Origin: SAR86 cluster bacterium AG-313-D11
GTDB taxonomy: Bacteria > Pseudomonadota > Gammaproteobacteria > Magnimaribacterales > D2472
Length of the DNA: 64,000 bases
Direction of reading: 5' to 3'
NCBI GenBank assembly: GCA_003284215.1
Contig: QBVW01000001.1
Location: 150,127 to 214,126 of the forward strand
Shown: positions 8,064-15,236 of the stretch, piece after piece
How the letters are laid out: each line of letters begins with the position of its first letter
How positions within the stretch are numbered: position 1 is the stretch's first letter
Program-made: the position numbers and the translations under genes
Notes under the pieces: model-generated
What the model was told of the DNA's origin: nothing
Databases searched by the model: none
Seen by the model: only the letters and a program-made list of their open reading frames with translations

Positions 8064-10367
8064 ATGAAAATTAATAATTTTGCTTTTTTACTGTTAGCCA
8101 CTTTTTCAATCAACACCTTGTTCGCTGATGATATGGATGAAATTGTCGTAAGCTCGGCTTTCATTGATAAGCCTGCCAGCGAGTTGGCTGACCCAATTCA
8201 TATATTAAGCGGCGATGATATTGCAACTGAAGCCACCCAGAGTTTAGGCGAAAGCATAGATGATTTATTGGGCGTTTCTTCAGCAGATTATGGCTCCGCA
8301 GTCGGTCAGCCAATCATTAGAGGGATGTCAGGTACAAGAGTTAAAGTCCTGGACAATGGCATGGTTAATCGGGATGTTTCAGGCCTTGGTGCTGATCATC
8401 TTAATGACGTTGACATGAGTAATGTGCAGCAAATAGAGGTTGTTAGAGGGCCGTCATCTCTACTCTATACTAACGGAACAGTTGGCGGCATCGTCAATAT
8501 TGTTGATAACTCTATAGCCATGCAAGATGTAGAGCGATTATTTAAAGTTGGGGCTGAATCACAATCGGTTAATGATGGGGACAGCCAAAGCTTTTTTTAT
8601 CAAGATAATGTTGGCGGCAATATAAACGTTAGCCTTGCATATAAAAATACTTCTCTTGGAAATTTTGATGTGCCTAACGGAGCAATTATGCATGAAGAAG
8701 AAGAGCATCATGATGAAGATGAAGACCATGATGATCACGAAGAAGAGGAGCATGAGGAGCATGAAGAAAACTTAGGCTTCTTGGCAAATTCTGATTTTGA
8801 ATCAGAGTCATTTAAATTTGGTGCATCCACTACAGGTGACTGGGGTTATCTTGGAGTTTCATTGGCAAGCATTGAAAGCATGTATGGAATCCCATATCAC
8901 GGTGAAGGTCATGGTGGGCATGGTGATGAGCATGGTGATGAGCATGGTGATGAGCATGGTGAAGAAGAAGAGGGCCACGATGAGCATGAGGGCGAAAGAA
9001 TTTTTAGCAGTACCGATTCTGAGAAATTTGATATCAGAGGATCTTTCAATATTGCCGGTGATTTAGTAAAAAAAGTTGATTTTTTTATGCGAGATACTGA
9101 TTACTCATTCACTGAGCAACATGCTGAAGAAGCGCATGAAGAAGAAGAGGATCATGACGAGGATCATGACGAGGAGCATGACGAGCATGAAGGCCATTCC
9201 GAAGGACCAACCACCTTCACAAATGATGCGATAGAAGCAGGAGCTATCTTTGATTTATCAAATTCTTTAGTTTCTCAAAAATTTGCTATCAACTTTGTGA
9301 ATGAGGATACTTCCGTTATTGGAGCAGAGGCATTTATGACTCCTGCATCAAGAGACGAGCTTACATTTGGTTATTATTTGAGCCGAAGTTTTGATTCTTT
9401 CGATTTAGATTTTGGTGTGAGATATGACATGATTGATAACGAAGGGTCTATAGTATCAGAGCATCATGATGAAGAAGAGCATCACGATGAGGATGAAGAT
9501 CACGAGGAAGAAGATCATGATGAGCATGAGGAAAGTGAAGTCGCTTATTACGATCAATCTTTTAACAATTCTAGTATTGCCTTAAATATTGGAAGAGATC
9601 TTAATGATTTCCTCAGTGTTGATTTTGGGTTTTCTTCAGTAGAAAGAGCCCCTTCAACTACTGAAATGTTTATGAATGGAGCGCATTTAGCAACCGCTAG
9701 ATTTGAGGTTGGTAATGTAAATTTAGATTCAGAAACATCTAATAATATAGATTTCACTCTTAACATGAAAAATGGCAGCTTTTTTGCTAAAGCTTCTGTA
9801 TTTATGAATGATGTTGATAATTACATTTATCTTCAAGATGAAACTGAAGAAGAGCATGAAGAACATGATGAAGAGCATGAAGAAGGCCATGATGATCATG
9901 GAGGTTTAATTCTTGCGAATTATCTTCAACAAGATGCTGAATTAGATGGTTATGAGATTGAATTTGGCAACACCATGGACTTAGGTTCTGGCGAGTTAAC
10001 TCTATCATTTGGAAGAGATGAAGTTTCTGGAGAGTTTTCTAATGGTGGAAATATTCCTCGATTAAACCCAGCTCGAAATATTTTTAAACTGAAATATTCC
10101 CAAGATAATACAATTTTTGGATTGATGTTTAAGGATGTTGAAAAACAGAATGACATAGGGCTTGCTGAGACTAATACAGATGGCTATCAAATGTTGAATG
10201 CTAAATTATCTAGAAGTTTTGATTTTGGCGGCCAAGGAGACTTGACTGTTTCATTGTTTGGAAACAACTTGCTAGATGAGATTGCTAGGAATCATTCCTC
10301 ATATGTTAAAACTCAGGTGCCTTTACCTGGAAAAAATTACGGTATTAGGTTTAACCTAACATTCTAA
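8064..10367 (+). CDS. TonB-dependent outer-membrane receptor with five His/Asp/Glu-rich insertions (767 aa)
   Basis: AGGAGG SD; signal peptide ...NTLFA/DD; TonB-box-like DEIVVSS; plug (IEVVRGPSSLLYTNGTVGGIVNIV); ERAP...GNVNLDSE (FRAP/NPNL-type) region; C-terminal ...IRFNLTF. H/D/E tracts at aa 210-235, 279-311, 353-379, 466-491 and 593-613. Confidence 0.9.
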   Translation: MKINNFAFLLLATFSINTLFADDMDEIVVSSAFIDKPASELADPIHILSGDDIATEATQSLGESIDDLLGVSSADYGSAVGQPIIRGMSGTRVKVLDNGMVNRDVSGLGADHLNDVDMSNVQQIEVVRGPSSLLYTNGTVGGIVNIVDNSIAMQDVERLFKVGAESQSVNDGDSQSFFYQDNVGGNINVSLAYKNTSLGNFDVPNGAIMHEEEEHHDEDEDHDDHEEEEHEEHEENLGFLANSDFESESFKFGASTTGDWGYLGVSLASIESMYGIPYHGEGHGGHGDEHGDEHGDEHGEEEEGHDEHEGERIFSSTDSEKFDIRGSFNIAGDLVKKVDFFMRDTDYSFTEQHAEEAHEEEEDHDEDHDEEHDEHEGHSEGPTTFTNDAIEAGAIFDLSNSLVSQKFAINFVNEDTSVIGAEAFMTPASRDELTFGYYLSRSFDSFDLDFGVRYDMIDNEGSIVSEHHDEEEHHDEDEDHEEEDHDEHEESEVAYYDQSFNNSSIALNIGRDLNDFLSVDFGFSSVERAPSTTEMFMNGAHLATARFEVGNVNLDSETSNNIDFTLNMKNGSFFAKASVFMNDVDNYIYLQDETEEEHEEHDEEHEEGHDDHGGLILANYLQQDAELDGYEIEFGNTMDLGSGELTLSFGRDEVSGEFSNGGNIPRLNPARNIFKLKYSQDNTIFGLMFKDVEKQNDIGLAETNTDGYQMLNAKLSRSFDFGGQGDLTVSLFGNNLLDEIARNHSSYVKTQVPLPGKNYGIRFNLTF
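8901..8969 (+). repeat. 12-bp in-frame tandem repeat GGTGATGAGCAT (GDEH) inside the receptor gene
   Basis: Three perfect units at 8922-8957, flanked by degenerate units (GGTGAAGGTCAT, GGTGGGCAT, GGTGAAGAAGAA). Confidence 0.85.
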
Positions 10368-10473: not shown

Positions 10474-13065
10474 ATGAACTTGAGAATTTTACTTCCATTT
10501 TTTATTTTCACCTTTGCAAACAATTTGGTCTTAGCCCAAGACACCGAAGAAATTATTTCAGTTGCTTCATATATAGAATCTAGTGAATTTAATGCATCAC
10601 CTGTAGATATTATTTCAGGGGAAGACTTTAAAAATTTGAGAGTATCCTCTGTAGCTGAGCTAAGCAAGTACCTGAGCATTGCCTCAGGTTCTAACTTTCA
10701 AACCAATGCTTTGGATGGTGTAGATCAGGGCATGGCAAACATCACTTTGCGTGGAATGGATCACGCATCAACCCTTGTGTTAATTAATAAAAAACGTCAG
10801 ACACATTCTGGGACACCTTCTGACGAAGGTGAGGGCTATATCGATATAAATATTATTCCTGAAATAGCCCTTAACAGAATAGAGATTCTCAAAGATGGAG
10901 CCACTTCACTTTATGGCTCCGATGCTGTGGCAGGAGTGATCAATTTTCAAACCTATCAACAATTTACCGGAATGCGGCTTGCGCTTGGCAGTCAGAAAAC
11001 TAGTAACTATGATCAAAGAGACAATTCTTTAGGTGCGCTTTTTGGAGGCGAGGTTTTTGGAGGAAACTATGTATTTGCATTAAGCTCTTTAAATAAATCC
11101 CCTCTAAATGCTGCAAGAATTCCCAAATTTGCTGAATTGGGTCTAAGCGGTCTGGGGAATAGCTTTAAAGTTACTCAAGCAGATTCAGTAGCTTCTGGTA
11201 TATATGCCGGAAGTTATAACAAAAATCAAACAGTGCCTGATCCAAATTGTGTTGATAACGGAGGGGTGTTGGCTGGACCTAGATGTAAATTCTTATATGG
11301 CGAAAGGTTTAATATAGTTAATGATGAGGATCACTTGAAAGGATATCTTCATTTTACAAGATCTAATAAAAAGATTGATTATTCAGCCACTGTGCTAATA
11401 GCCAAAATTGATGTGAATGACAATCCACAATCCCCATCTTATCCAGCTCTGTCATATTTATCTAAGAAAATTTTGCCAGGGCAGGGAGGCAGTCCATTCA
11501 ATGTACCAGTGATTTGGTATGGCAGACCTTTAGGTTCTGCTTTCCCATCACCCAATTCACCCAAGGCTATCTTCCAATATCATTTCAGCAATAGATTAAT
11601 TTTTGATATTTCTCAAAATTTAGATTTTGAACTATCTCTAACTGCTAGTGAACATGAGAATAAGCACAATCGACCAGATACTATAGAATCAAGGTTTGAG
11701 GCTGCAATTTTGGGCGCAGGTGGTCCAAATAGAAATGAGCAGTGGAATATATTTTTACCTTTAGAAAATTCAGCAACTTTGATTGATTACATAAAGGGCT
11801 CTGAGACTTCAACTAAGACTGGCAGCCTTATATCCTTGGATGGAATTTTGAGAGGCAAGAAGAATGGAGCGAACTTTGCTTTAGGTTTTCAATTTAATTC
11901 TGAGGATTTGCGAATCGATTATTCTGAAATGAGTAGAGTGGCATTTGATTCTTTTGGAAAATTAACTAAAGGCGCAGATTTGTTATTTCTAGGGGGTGGG
12001 ACAAACGTTAGTACGAACAGAAAAAAACAAGCTATTTTCTTTGAAGCAAATAAAAATTTTGGCGATGCATTGGACTTAATTTTATCTGGTCGCTATGAAA
12101 AACAAGATAATGAATCATCATTTGACCCAAAATTTTCATTTAAGTATTCAGTCTCAAGAGCTTTTTTATTGAGGGGTTCTATCGGCACCTCTTTTACAGC
12201 TCCTTCGATGGCTCAAATGTTTTCCTCCGAGATTCGGCTTGGAAGTGTAAGAGATATAAATGATTCACCATTTGTTCGTTTAGCAGTTTTAGGAAATCCA
12301 GACTTAAAGCCGGCAACTTCAGAAAATATAACTTTGGGATTTGTATGGGATATTACAGATGAGCTTGATTTAACTTTAGGTTATTGGGCAATTAATTATA
12401 AAAATAGAATTGAAGCAGAGAGCGCTCAAGTTTTGTTAAACACCAATCCTTATGCAGCCAGCGTAACAAGAAATCAGTTTGGAGAACTGATAGCCGTTAG
12501 TACTTCATATTTCAATGAAGAAAAAACAGAAATCAATGGCATAGACGCAGAGATAAATTTTCTTAAAGTCACTAAATATGGAGACTTAAAGTATTCCATT
12601 CAGGCAACTCAATTTTCTGAATTTATAACTCCTGAGGATAATAATATTGGAGATCAGGAATTGCGCTCAATGATGGTCAATAGAGTGGGGAAGTTCAATT
12701 ATGACGCCCATACCCATTCACTACCTAAAATACGATTGAATACATTTTTAAGCTGGACAATAAATGATTTGTTATTAGGAATGAATACAAGATATGTCGA
12801 AGGATATTCAAATGATCGTCAGATACCTGCATCTGCTATCAGCCTTGGCTATACAAATTATGTAAAATCATTTTTAGTGCATGACTTTTCAGTGAAAAAA
12901 TCTTTTCAGCTTTCATTGGGTGAAATGAAGATAGGTCTTGGAATTATCAATGCTTTTGATAAGAAAGCTCCATTACTATATGACGCTCCTGACTTTAGTT
13001 TTGATACAAGAGTTCATGATCCAAGGGGACGTTTAATAAATATTACTGCAGAATTCAATCTTTAA
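10474..13065 (+). CDS. TonB-dependent outer-membrane receptor (863 aa)
   Basis: Signal peptide ...NNLVLA/QD; TonB box EEIISVASY; plug (IEILKDGATSLYGSDAVAGVINF); GNPDLKPATSEN motif; long beta-barrel-type sequence. Confidence 0.9.
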   Translation: MNLRILLPFFIFTFANNLVLAQDTEEIISVASYIESSEFNASPVDIISGEDFKNLRVSSVAELSKYLSIASGSNFQTNALDGVDQGMANITLRGMDHASTLVLINKKRQTHSGTPSDEGEGYIDINIIPEIALNRIEILKDGATSLYGSDAVAGVINFQTYQQFTGMRLALGSQKTSNYDQRDNSLGALFGGEVFGGNYVFALSSLNKSPLNAARIPKFAELGLSGLGNSFKVTQADSVASGIYAGSYNKNQTVPDPNCVDNGGVLAGPRCKFLYGERFNIVNDEDHLKGYLHFTRSNKKIDYSATVLIAKIDVNDNPQSPSYPALSYLSKKILPGQGGSPFNVPVIWYGRPLGSAFPSPNSPKAIFQYHFSNRLIFDISQNLDFELSLTASEHENKHNRPDTIESRFEAAILGAGGPNRNEQWNIFLPLENSATLIDYIKGSETSTKTGSLISLDGILRGKKNGANFALGFQFNSEDLRIDYSEMSRVAFDSFGKLTKGADLLFLGGGTNVSTNRKKQAIFFEANKNFGDALDLILSGRYEKQDNESSFDPKFSFKYSVSRAFLLRGSIGTSFTAPSMAQMFSSEIRLGSVRDINDSPFVRLAVLGNPDLKPATSENITLGFVWDITDELDLTLGYWAINYKNRIEAESAQVLLNTNPYAASVTRNQFGELIAVSTSYFNEEKTEINGIDAEINFLKVTKYGDLKYSIQATQFSEFITPEDNNIGDQELRSMMVNRVGKFNYDAHTHSLPKIRLNTFLSWTINDLLLGMNTRYVEGYSNDRQIPASAISLGYTNYVKSFLVHDFSVKKSFQLSLGEMKIGLGIINAFDKKAPLLYDAPDFSFDTRVHDPRGRLINITAEFNL

Positions 13066-13072
13066 AAAAACA

Positions 13073-13105
13073 TGAAGGGTCTATACAAGACCCTTCACCA
13101 TTTTT
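13073..13105 (+). terminator. Rho-independent terminator after the second TonB receptor
   Basis: Stem TGAAGGGTC / GACCCTTCA with 7-nt loop, then ...TTTTT. Confidence 0.7.
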
Positions 13106-13265
13106 AGGGGGAAAGTACGCTAAGCATTGGTATGAATATGTATTCAATTTCTTAGGGGGAAAGAATGAATACCTAGCGCACATAAATATAAATGCAATTT
13201 TTATGCCAAAAACATACTACTCAACTGAGCAAATATATTTTTTTAATCGAATGGAGCTAAGGAAA

Positions 13266-13319
13266 AATGGTGCCGGCACCAAGAGTTGAACTCGGGACCT
13301 GATGATTACAAATCAACTG
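13266..13319 (-). repeat. Orphan copy of the 3' half of tRNA-Thr(UGU) (attR-like or tRNA pseudogene fragment)
   Basis: 54/54 identity with 14262-14315 (tRNA positions ~25-76 plus 2 nt of flank). The 5' half of the tRNA is missing or degenerate. Confidence 0.9.
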
Positions 13320-13357
13320 TGTATACCTTTTAAGCCTTTAGATACAACGTTTATGCC

Positions 13358-13383
13358 TGACTACAGAAAAATATCTGTAGTCA
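13358..13383. promoter_or_regulatory. Perfect 9-bp inverted repeat TGACTACAG-N8-CTGTAGTCA (operator-like or hairpin)
   Basis: Read directly. A third half-site TGACTACAA lies at 13408-13416. All sit upstream of ORF 13443. Confidence 0.4.
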
Positions 13384-13442
13384 ATATTGGTTAATCTGAC
13401 TGCTATATGACTACAAAAGGTTAATTTTTATTACTTTTATTA

Positions 13443-13682
13443 ATGTATGATTTGAGTATGCCTAACATAAACTATTATGAAGAATCGGACACTTTATTTA
13501 ATGTAATTGTTAACACTGATTATGCTACCTATAATTTCTTAATTAATACTGACGATGTCCCTCTAATTCAAGACTGCCATGTTCTTGATAAGAGTGACGA
13601 TGAGCCTAAAAGTTATGAATTTAAATCACAGGCTCATGCCTGGATTCTTTTTAACAATAAAGTCAAAACCTATTCTCACTAG
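13443..13682 (+). CDS. Hypothetical small acidic protein (79 aa)
   Basis: Open frame in AT-rich DNA where stops are frequent; first of three packed ORFs. No SD and no recognisable motif. Confidence 0.45.
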   Translation: MYDLSMPNINYYEESDTLFNVIVNTDYATYNFLINTDDVPLIQDCHVLDKSDDEPKSYEFKSQAHAWILFNNKVKTYSH

Positions 13683-13691
13683 TTTCAGATA

Positions 13692-14099
13692 ATGAGTAAG
13701 GAAATTAATGTTGATGTATATTGCGCTAGTATTATTGGCGTTTTGCAGTATCTTTTAAAAGAAGGAGAGGAAAGTGCTAAATCTGTAGCAAAAGAATTTG
13801 CAGATGGTAAGGACCCTATTCTTGCTGAAGAGTTTCTTATGGGTGCAAAATCACTCGCTGAAAAATTATCTAAAACTAATCACACATCAGAAGAAATCCT
13901 TCCCTTAATTCCTTTGTATATAAAATTCTTAAGGAAATTCAACTCTGACTTTACGCCAAAATCATTTTTGAAGAAAACCTTTCGAGGCTCAATATTTAGC
14001 AAATCTCAAATTAATAATTTGCATGAGTCCGAAAAAAGAGTTTTGGCATTCCTCCTAAGATGCTTAAGTGGAATGGCAGACGAGGATTGGTTCAGATAA
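13692..14099 (+). CDS. Hypothetical, probably all-helical protein (135 aa)
   Basis: 135-codon open frame starting 9 nt after the previous stop; no family recognised. Confidence 0.6.
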   Translation: MSKEINVDVYCASIIGVLQYLLKEGEESAKSVAKEFADGKDPILAEEFLMGAKSLAEKLSKTNHTSEEILPLIPLYIKFLRKFNSDFTPKSFLKKTFRGSIFSKSQINNLHESEKRVLAFLLRCLSGMADEDWFR

Positions 14100-14101
14100 T
14101 T

Positions 14102-14251
14102 ATGCTGAAGACTTTTTTTGAAATTCTTTTAATACTGCCTGTAATTATTTTCATTCTACCCGGATACAACAATTGGAGTGAGGAAATTCCTAGACTAATT
14201 AATTGGTACGCTTGGATTGGAATTCCATATCTTATTTTTTTTATTTTTTAA
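14102..14251 (+). CDS. Small hydrophobic two-TM peptide (49 aa from ATG 14102; ORF track starts at 14060)
   Basis: MLKTFFEILLILPVIIFILPGYNNWSEEIPRLINWYAWIGIPYLIFFIF has two hydrophobic segments. ATG lies 2 nt after the upstream stop. Confidence 0.5.
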   Translation: MLKTFFEILLILPVIIFILPGYNNWSEEIPRLINWYAWIGIPYLIFFIF

Positions 14252-14263
14252 AAGATATTTGAA

Positions 14264-14339
<76 letters not shown>

Positions 14340-14456: not shown

Positions 14457-15191
14457 ATGAAAAAAATATTTTTATTATTTACTTTGGTACTAAGTTTTGG
14501 AGTATCAGCTGATGATCATTTGCCAGCTAATTATTCTATGTACCAAACAAATTTTTTGTTTAACTGTCCTGAGCCGGAGCAATGCTTTGCTGCTTTTGAT
14601 AAGTACATGTCAGCACCTGAGGTAGCAGCAGAGAATTTTGAAGTAGATTTTTTTGCCGTTCAACAAAATGGGTGGGACGATTCAACTCATGGCATTAGTT
14701 GGTACTTTCTTGATGAAGATCAATACGCCAAGTCTGGTCAAATCTATACAACATCTCAAGCTGGAAGAGATTTTAGAAAAATGATGAATGATATAGGTGC
14801 TGAAATTATCTCGGATACCTTAACTGTTCATTCAATCGGTGTAACTATTGCTGGAGACGCAGCTACAAATGTTGTAACTCTGCGTTGGAGTCATGAGATT
14901 ACTAATCCTACAAAGTTCGTTCCGCTTTGGAGCAAATTTGCAAAAAGTATTGAAGAATATGATTGGTCTGCAAATGCATATGGTTTGCAATCTCATTTAT
15001 TAGGCAATAATGGAAATGGAATCACTCATGAGATATGGGCATCATTTAGCTCACCACAGGACGCATTAAAATTTTTAAAAGGAATGTATGGATCTAAAGA
15101 GTTTGCAAAGTTTTCACCTGAAGCAAGCAAATATGGAACTTTTAAAAGATCTTACATGGAGGTAAGTCTTAAGCAATATAATCCTGATTAA
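14457..15191 (+). CDS. Secreted protein of unknown function, apparent two-domain internal repeat (244 aa)
   Basis: Signal peptide MKKIFLLFTLVLSFGVSA/DD. The two halves share G..THxI.W..F...Y...F.K pattern. Confidence 0.75.
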   Translation: MKKIFLLFTLVLSFGVSADDHLPANYSMYQTNFLFNCPEPEQCFAAFDKYMSAPEVAAENFEVDFFAVQQNGWDDSTHGISWYFLDEDQYAKSGQIYTTSQAGRDFRKMMNDIGAEIISDTLTVHSIGVTIAGDAATNVVTLRWSHEITNPTKFVPLWSKFAKSIEEYDWSANAYGLQSHLLGNNGNGITHEIWASFSSPQDALKFLKGMYGSKEFAKFSPEASKYGTFKRSYMEVSLKQYNPD

Positions 15192-15209
15192 TTGATCTAA
15201 GCAAAACAA

Positions 15210-15236
15210 ATGGCCTCATTGGAGGCCATTTTTTTA
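15210..15236. terminator. Bidirectional terminator between convergent genes
   Basis: Stem ATGGCCTC / GAGGCCAT with 4-nt loop, A-run upstream and T-run downstream. The T-run overlaps the msrA stop codon. Confidence 0.7.

Follow-up and report, generated by a model that had tools for sequence, protein, structure and literature searches.

Cis-mobilizable elements (CIMEs) are defined as elements that keep their attachment (att) sites after the genes for integration and transfer have been lost (PMC5704250). The term was coined for remnants of ICEs (integrative and conjugative elements) and IMEs (integrative and mobilizable elements) in Firmicutes, which are usually several kb long. Additive flexible genomic islands, as described in Methylophilaceae, have recurring tRNA-end repeats and consist of units ranging from 330 bp to 42 kb, with about 80% hypothetical proteins (PMC10872708). 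In Prochlorococcus, for which a model of island growth through tycheposons has been proposed, tRNA integrations would leave degenerate elements and co-transferred DNA between partial tRNAs (10.1101/2020.12.28.424599). Here we describe a unit of 996 bp, made up of 942 bp and one 54-nt repeat, at a tRNA-Thr gene in a 64,000-nt stretch of the SAR86 cluster bacterium AG-313-D11 (contig QBVW01000001.1, positions 150,127 to 214,126 of the forward strand; this whole stretch is hereafter referred to as the window, and positions are those of the window). An earlier note on this DNA, made from the sequence alone, had described three tightly packed orphan open reading frames (ORFs; ORF1, ORF2, and ORF3) as the only cargo of a tRNA-flanked cassette. 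In our analysis, the three ORFs are the whole cargo of an integrase-less unit in the SAR86 tRNA-Thr gene, likely a CIME-like, decayed or hitch-hiking part of an additive island that was left there by tRNA-targeting integrative elements.

A 996-bp Unit in the tRNA-Thr(UGU) Gene

The intact tRNA-Thr(UGU) gene, the putative integration target, is located on the minus strand at 14264–14339 (called by ARAGORN; 65.9 bits in Rfam). A 54-nt direct repeat occurs twice on the same strand. Its proximal copy (copy 2, 14262–14315, the putative proximal att site) is inside the intact tRNA gene, and its distal copy (copy 1, 13266–13319, the putative distal att site) is a displaced 3' fragment of tRNA-Thr(UGU). 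The two copies are 100% identical with a start-to-start spacing of 996 bp, and the repeat takes in the part of the tRNA that extends from its anticodon stem as far as the CCA end, with 2 nt in addition. No third copy is present in the window, and ARAGORN does not call any tRNA at 13266–13319. When a tyrosine recombinase has the 3' part of a tRNA in its attP, integration classically leaves such a pair at the target, i.e., the intact tRNA and a displaced copy of its 3' part.

The insert between the repeats is 942 bp long, of which the three ORFs take up 798 nt (85%), and only 10 nt separate the ORF3 stop codon from the proximal repeat. The GC content of the insert is 31.4%, vs. 37.1% for the window, which is core chromosome of about 37% GC containing tuf, rpoBC, ribosomal protein operons, and the gene for transfer-messenger RNA (tmRNA). 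No recombinase gene is present between the repeats or nearby in the window, nor is there any unexplained ORF of integrase size near the site, and no recombinase or relaxase signature was detected in the three ORFs by Pfam, NCBIfam, or PHROGs. The 54-nt repeat and the intact tRNA-Thr(UGU) thus bear out the earlier description of a tRNA-flanked cassette with these ORFs as its only cargo. What that description had missed, and what is the informative feature here, is the cassette itself, which is integrase-less and lies at a hot spot of recurrent integration in SAR86.

This arrangement resembles a CIME in that two att copies lie in a tRNA gene, recombinase and transfer genes are missing, and the site is one where elements accrete. 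Judged from its sequence, the unit can be classed with CIMEs, as it appears to be flanked by att sites in the form of the perfect 54-nt repeat and is devoid of genes for integration or transfer. It differs from the Firmicutes remnants in its length of 1 kb and in its host, a streamlined marine gammaproteobacterium with no known conjugation context, and its decay is a presumed one.

Variable Occupancy of the Site in SAR86 Genomes

An exact 44-nt piece of the tRNA was found in 18 stretches from 17 genomes, all of them SAR86 single-cell genomes or metagenome-assembled genomes (MAGs), and the intact tRNA in all 17 SAR86 genomes is identical to that of the window over its whole length (76/76). The gene order around the site, i.e., TonB-dependent receptor, tRNA-Thr, 244-aa gene, msrA, birA, and tuf, is also kept, except in one locus that is apparently rearranged (L034; related loci are referred to by L numbers throughout). 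In SAR86E (L030), the alignment with the window is unbroken from the receptor gene through 13319 into the intact tRNA, and compared with this genome, the window thus has a precise insertion of 996 bp. In two further genomes, LRMED-352 and AG-313-N18, nothing is inserted between flank and tRNA. An ancestral chromosomal operon was also considered, and is rejected because of these empty sites.

Elsewhere the site is occupied by other cassettes. In AG-313-P16, two copies of the tRNA core are present on one contig (CABXFU010000003.1; tiles L035 and L022), and the cassette between them (L035 6917–8000 plus L022 1–497) has the same 54-nt repeat as the window, together with the adjoining arm discussed below, and no integrase. 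Its cargo consists of a 230-aa lipoprotein and a second lipoprotein, and its repeat spacing is most likely 1525 bp, the value obtained if the two 8-kb tiles are adjacent, with a 188-codon frame spanning the join. In AG-319-K08 (L024), a 480-bp cassette with a 47-nt repeat and a single 118-aa membrane-protein gene is followed by the intact tRNA, and does not contain the arm. AG-447-M16 (L023) has a degenerate, near-full-length tRNA-Thr pseudo-copy at the site, and several SAR86 genomes have a 171-aa or a 118-aa gene there. Overall, the site is either empty or holds a cassette, whose length is 480 bp, 996 bp, or, provided that the tiles are adjacent, 1525 bp, with variable gene content and kept synteny.

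In AG-313-P16, a 118-aa membrane-protein gene is also located upstream of the distal tRNA fragment, and the same gene is bounded by the 47-nt tRNA fragment in AG-319-K08 (L024 2044–2599, in the orientation of the window). This arrangement suggests stepwise accretion.

The recurrence of tRNA-end repeats in the window, AG-313-P16, and AG-319-K08, along with the variable content and kept synteny, makes the locus, as far as its sequence tells, an additive island. It shares with fGI-2, at the tRNA-Lys of Ca. Methylopumilus, a tRNA hot spot, tRNA-end repeats, strain-variable content, tiny units, and mostly hypothetical proteins (PMC10872708). The differences are that the repeat of the window unit is 54 nt long, extending from the anticodon stem to the 3' end, vs. 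20 nt in fGI-2, that an arm is common to different cassettes, and that the host is SAR86 and the tRNA another one.

The repeat could alternatively be a local duplication of the 3' half of the tRNA, without any mobile element, and the ORFs ancestral or chance frames. Such a duplication is made conceivable by the tRNA-Thr pseudo-copy in AG-447-M16, and the lack of an integrase in the window fits with it as well. However, several SAR86 genomes with kept synteny have nothing at the site, and the arm next to the distal repeat is 99% identical in a genome with different cargo. We regard this alternative as very improbable, and together with the properties of the ORFs given further below, it is largely refuted.

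An Arm Common to Cassettes With Different Cargo

Next to the distal repeat of the window is a 96-nt arm (13320–13415) that is identical to L035 6973–7068 of AG-313-P16 at 95 of its 96 positions. The flanking TonB-receptor gene of AG-313-P16 is only 87% identical to that of the window, and with this background, the binomial probability of at least 95 matches in 96 positions is about 2e-5. The arm is therefore of recent common origin or under strong constraint. It is absent from 16 other SAR86 loci, and past the arm, the cargo of AG-313-P16 is unrelated to that of the window.

Within the arm, motifs of the TGACTACA type are present at 13359–13366, in inverted orientation at 13377–13384, in degenerate form at 13399–13406, and without the first T at 13411–13417, and a 10-bp hairpin is formed by 13358–13383. 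These motifs and the hairpin may be where a recombinase or an accessory factor binds.

The empty sites in related SAR86 genomes, together with an arm that matches at 95 of 96 positions amid flanks of about 87% identity, argue that the cassette was horizontally acquired. The earlier view of a cassette with orphan cargo, bounded by tRNA sequence, is thereby supported and sharpened, with the empty sites pointing to its acquisition.

The Three Orphan ORFs as Genes

All three ORFs are located on the plus strand, ORF1 at 13443–13682 (79 aa), ORF2 at 13692–14099 (135 aa), and ORF3 at 14102–14251 (49 aa from the ATG at 14102). As read from the sequence, the gaps between them are 9 nt (ORF1/ORF2, 13683–13691) and 2 nt (ORF2/ORF3, 14100–14101), and they are probably one co-transcribed set. 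Coordinates, strand, and gaps are exactly those in the earlier note, whose choice of start codon for ORF3 is also confirmed by the homologs, in which the conserved core begins at 14102 and not at the ATG at 14060. ORF3 has gone unrecorded by gene callers.

ORF1 encodes a small acidic protein, as the note had it, with an isoelectric point (pI) of 4.39 and 13 acidic (D+E) vs. 5 basic (K+R) residues. Its AlphaFold2 model, consisting of beta strands followed by a C-terminal helix, is of low confidence (predicted local distance difference test, pLDDT, 54), and its homologs form an orphan family of seven clusters with 60–99% identity. For ORF2, which had been described as all-helical, AlphaFold2 indeed predicts a five-helix bundle from a 10-sequence alignment (pLDDT 84; predicted template modeling score, pTM, 0.80). 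Conservation in ORF2 lies in the C-terminal half (IPLYIKF..F..DFT...K.F.G..F....C..G.A...WF). Its orphan family is very small: a word-indexed search found three clusters of homologs, and an exhaustive HMMER search of 1.84 billion representatives with the ORF2 profile gave 10 matches, none of them annotated and at least two of which (P0016 and P0018) look like low-complexity repeats rather than relatives. ORF3 has a grand average of hydropathy (GRAVY) of 1.14, with two hydrophobic segments that are separated by YNNWSEEIPRL, and is the most conserved of the three, with 96% identity in L007–L009, vs. 81% for ORF1 and 85% for ORF2. Homologs of all three families are restricted to marine metagenomes.

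The note had further argued from length that the ORFs are likely real genes, which holds for ORF2 and not for ORF1 alone. When the insert was shuffled, an ORF of 135 codons appeared in none of 2000 shuffles and one of 79 codons in 129 of 2000, and the length argument is thus weak for ORF1 alone and decisive only for ORF2. Pairwise dN/dS values (Nei-Gojobori) were 0.12–0.34 for ORF1, 0.08–0.10 for ORF2 (leaving out one nearly identical pair with dN = 0), and 0.04–0.25 for ORF3. The purifying selection that the note had proposed to look for is therefore apparent in all three, with values of 0.04–0.34 overall and none near 1. In addition, the order ORF1-ORF2-ORF3 is the same in independent marine metagenome contigs (L007–L012), in which the three are co-inherited. 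Being conserved and, by these estimates, under purifying selection, all three ORFs are real genes. Chance ORFs are rejected by dN/dS values well below 1 and by the shuffling result; both also speak against a local tRNA duplication with ancestral or chance frames, as does the presence of ORF homologs in unrelated contexts, including beside Xis-like and AAA_25 genes.

Homologous Loci in Marine Metagenomes

In L018, homologs of ORF1 and ORF2 (73 and 75% identity, respectively) lie directly downstream of genes encoding HTH_17 (excisionase-type) and AAA_25 proteins. The AAA_25 family is large in marine metagenomes, and one member, in L041, is 77% identical to that of L018, with neighboring genes that encode an HTH_17 protein, endonuclease VII, and a 372-aa tyrosine integrase. 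The members of the trio do not always occur together. L002 has the ORF1-ORF2 pair followed by a 286-aa charged protein and a lipoprotein, and no ORF3, and ORF1 occurs without ORF2 or ORF3 beside small secreted proteins in L013–L017. A distant relative of ORF2 is present in L020, with no ORF1 upstream and with a tRNA-3'-like fragment at the contig end, and another in L019, a contig that starts just upstream of the gene.

The relationships among the full trios look mosaic. ORF2 of the window is closest to the L011/L012 lineage (93%, vs. 85% to L007), while ORF1 (81% vs. 75%) and ORF3 (96% vs. 83–85%) are closer to L007 than to L011/L012. Such mosaic relationships suggest recombination among cassette variants.

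In L007–L009, a SAM-I/IV riboswitch (82 bits, E = 1e-12) is located 87 nt past ORF3 (L007 2669–2764, L008 1840–1935, and L009 979–1074). After it come tiny ORFs of 51 and 76 aa, along with another, partial copy of the riboswitch's 3' segment. Two relatives are associated with tRNA-Ser genes. Positions 1–49 of L041 are the reverse complement of the 5' half of tRNA-Ser(UGA), 73 nt from the integrase stop codon, and the contig is cut there. In L006 (23 kb), the trio abuts the 5' end of a tRNA-Ser(GGA), whose 5' half is present again 5.2 kb away as a 39-nt copy (9735–9824 and 14990–15028). These relatives may thus duplicate the 5' half of the tRNA instead of the 3' half, which would be unusual. 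L006 was also considered as a full-length element and set aside: this contig, from long reads at 4x, is noisy and has frameshifts throughout, and its second copy is perhaps another, miscalled tRNA-Ser.

Origin and Mobility of the Unit

We propose that an element of the tyrosine-recombinase type recombined its tRNA-like attP with the tRNA gene, and that this integration would have rebuilt the tRNA and displaced its old 3' part. The remainder would be either the decayed element, or co-travelling material that stayed behind when the active part was excised. Such a remnant would keep both att copies and one recombination arm, and no recombinase, and could move again only if a related element supplied the integrase. 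Decay from a functional integrative element may find support in the HTH_17/AAA_25 context of L018 and in the integrase backbone of L041.

Several points weigh against this origin. No full-length parent or integrase for the tRNA-Thr site was found in IMG/VR, where exact scans with the hairpin of the arm, the junction between repeat and arm, and the 44-nt core of the tRNA were all empty. The link to an integrase depends on homologs of 73–77% identity on short contigs, and L041 abuts a tRNA-Ser rather than a tRNA-Thr. The adjacency of L035 and L022 in AG-313-P16 was deduced from the 8-kb tiling and the 188-codon frame, and not read directly. Finally, both mini-cassettes (in the window and AG-313-P16) end within 10–30 nt of the tRNA-proximal repeat. 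Such ends, together with one arm for different cargos, fit better with a site-specific origin than with random internal deletion, and a site-specific origin could be either hitch-hiking with a later-excised element or the in-trans insertion of a small circle.

The latter would make the cassette an active miniature mobile unit, which excises as a 996-bp circle and is inserted by an integrase encoded elsewhere, as integron cassettes are. The non-coding segment of such a circle, 187 nt in length (10 nt, the 54-nt core, and 123 nt with the arm), would serve as a one-armed attP. Consistent with this, two unrelated cargos are combined with an identical core and an arm matching at 95 of 96 positions in genomes with flanks of about 87% identity. 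In addition, the ends of both cassettes almost exactly coincide with the proximal repeat, and the repeats are 100% identical. However, these facts also fit with remnants of one element family with a common distal end, and the third cassette at the site, in AG-319-K08, does not have the arm. Assembled sequences can be read both ways as well. A 995-nt contig (L001, Logan SRR7040837) that is identical to the cassette starts at position 26 of the repeat and ends at position 24, so that its length is one less than the period, and a close variant of ORF2 occurs on six contigs of at most 1002 nt. An assembler with k = 31, on the other hand, gives such lengths for an integrated, repeat-bounded unit (942 + 60 = 1002), and a repeat-bounded assembly explains the 995 nt of L001 about as well as a circle does; a tandem copy may also account for this length. 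Neither a read across a circular junction nor a cognate integrase was seen. We consider such an active mobile unit unlikely.

In a broader form of this idea, SAR86 would possess a family of cargo-only mini-cassettes (0.5–1.5 kb), each with one to three small envelope-protein genes, a tRNA-Thr core of about 50 nt, and a single conserved arm of about 100 nt, which are exchanged between diverged hosts as small circles with the integrase acting in trans. This we hold to be equally doubtful. If true, integron cassettes would have a tRNA-based counterpart in a streamlined ocean bacterium, and the ORF1-ORF3 trio would be one such cassette, carrying an uncharacterized membrane-associated module.

The comparison with integron cassettes extends to the length of about 1 kb, the cargo-only content without a recombinase, the possible movement in trans, and arrays with differing cargo at one site. 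Unlike integron cassettes, the window unit has a tRNA-derived direct repeat and a one-sided arm, no attC or attI, no integron integrase, and three genes instead of one. An integron cassette is rejected, as no attC is seen, although no dedicated attC search was made, and the only hairpin (13358–13383) is in the arm and not at the 3' end of the cassette. With tycheposon remnants, the unit shares the targeting of a tRNA, the partial tRNA copies, the integrase-less state, and cargo left by the tRNA, and loci related to the trio have integrase, Xis-like, and replication-type ATPase modules, as tycheposons do. The unit itself has neither a recombinase nor a replication/Xis module, which rules it out as a tycheposon (a module of the latter kind is present upstream of ORF1-ORF2 in L018, and only the distantly linked L041 has a recombinase), and its host is not a cyanobacterium. 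A prophage or satellite is likewise ruled out, as there are no structural, replication, or integrase genes. The reading that we favor is an integrase-less remnant in an additive island.

Possible Functions of ORF1, ORF2, and ORF3

Searches of the three proteins against Pfam, PHROGs, NCBIfam, and PADLOC gave no significant match, nor did Pfam and PHROGs when each sequence in the alignments of ORF1 and ORF2 was searched. The few family matches listed have E-values of at least 0.01 and scores far under the curated cut-offs, each with a single protein or alignment member. PADLOC returned zero matches at E ≤ 10 for the three proteins. In PHROGs, nothing was found below E = 0.02, with only single alignment members matching, and the one match to a superinfection-exclusion family, by an alignment member at E = 0.27, is noise. 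Sequence-profile searches of the PDB gave no match. The fold search was limited to ORF2, as the ORF1 model (pLDDT 54) is too poor for such a search to be meaningful. Foldseek with the ORF2 model found no fold relative (best E 0.83 in the PDB and 0.73 in BFVD, with TM-scores below 0.4). That no family had been recognized for any of the proteins from sequence alone is thus in accordance with the Pfam, PHROGs, NCBIfam, PADLOC, and PDB profile searches, and with Foldseek for ORF2.

Genome-level searches were likewise negative, with no match for ORF1 and ORF2 by tblastn in 50,697 phage genomes, nothing for the ORF1 profile, the ORF2 profile, and the L018 AAA_25 protein in IMG/VR, and nothing for the ORF1 profile in one genome per GTDB species. 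The neighbors in related loci are nearly all hypothetical, with MORN_2, OGFr_N, and RNase_H_2 as the only domain matches.

From the layout of the trio, the earlier note had guessed at a toxin/immunity, abortive-infection, or superinfection-exclusion module. As a conflict module, ORF3 would be a membrane effector, with ORF1 and ORF2 as its soluble regulators, and this function would be compatible with either a remnant or an active mobile unit. The trio does belong to flexible DNA that was acquired horizontally and lies at a hot spot of integration, the small and hydrophobic ORF3 is under the strongest constraint (96% identity vs. 81–85% for its neighbors), and the other cassettes at the tRNA-Thr site also encode small membrane proteins and lipoproteins. 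Yet the negative results of PADLOC, of PHROGs beyond noise, of tblastn in phages, and of the fold searches with ORF2 leave the guess unsupported, and no defence genes are present near the cassette. The argument from layout is also weak because the members of the trio do not always stay together in other loci, in contrast to what is typical of an obligate toxin-antidote pair. As these negatives concern orphan proteins, the conflict-module idea is neither supported nor refuted by them, and we consider it quite improbable.

We prefer, with low confidence, a small envelope- or membrane-associated accessory module, which fits with the other cassettes at the site in that these encode small membrane proteins and lipoproteins. 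In such a module, ORF3 may be a membrane peptide and ORF2, as a guess, its cytoplasmic helical partner. ORF1 is a small acidic protein that can occur without the other two and stands first in other cassettes as well.

Conserved Intergenic Features Near the Site

On the minus strand, the segment from the stop codon of the TonB-receptor gene to the displaced tRNA fragment (13063–13215) is 76–88% conserved in 17 SAR86 loci, equal to the coding flanks. Its predicted fold has a long stem (GUACGCUAAG / CUUAGCGUAC), two CUUUCCCCC boxes around the stem, and a terminator hairpin at the end, and two TTAGGGGGAAAG boxes are present at 13101–13115 and 13149–13163, 48 nt apart. Three compensatory pairs occur in SAR86E, and alifold gives -37.4 kcal/mol for the minus strand vs. 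-19.4 for the plus strand. The RNA would thus be transcribed from the minus strand, since several of its G-U pairs would be A-C mismatches on the plus strand. Rfam gave no match for 13063–13215, and we consider the segment a candidate for either a small RNA or a 3' trailer located downstream of tRNA-Thr, from which it is separated by the cassette in the window.

On the other side of the tRNA, the convergent 244-aa gene and msrA have a GC-rich hairpin (15204–15235) between them. Its Rfam score, as "Histone3," is weak, and it is most likely a bidirectional terminator.

Implications for Gene Gain in SAR86

SAR86 bacteria are among the most abundant heterotrophic bacteria of the surface ocean and were long known only from uncultured cells. 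Gene gain and loss in their streamlined genomes are poorly documented, and the locus described here provides a clean, dated-looking example of gene gain, in which the empty site is precise, the repeat is perfect, and a single tRNA is host to three alternative mini-cassettes. The unit is an ordinary kind of genomic-island building block, here in SAR86, with three orphan protein families as its cargo, rather than any toxin or defence system that could be recognized. It indicates that units of gain may be very small and without a resident integrase, in line with the models for Prochlorococcus and Methylophilaceae. The arm that is common to unrelated cargos could serve directly as a substrate in recombination assays, and should the trio prove to have a role in conflict or in the envelope, the accessory functions known from oligotrophic marine bacteria would be extended by it.

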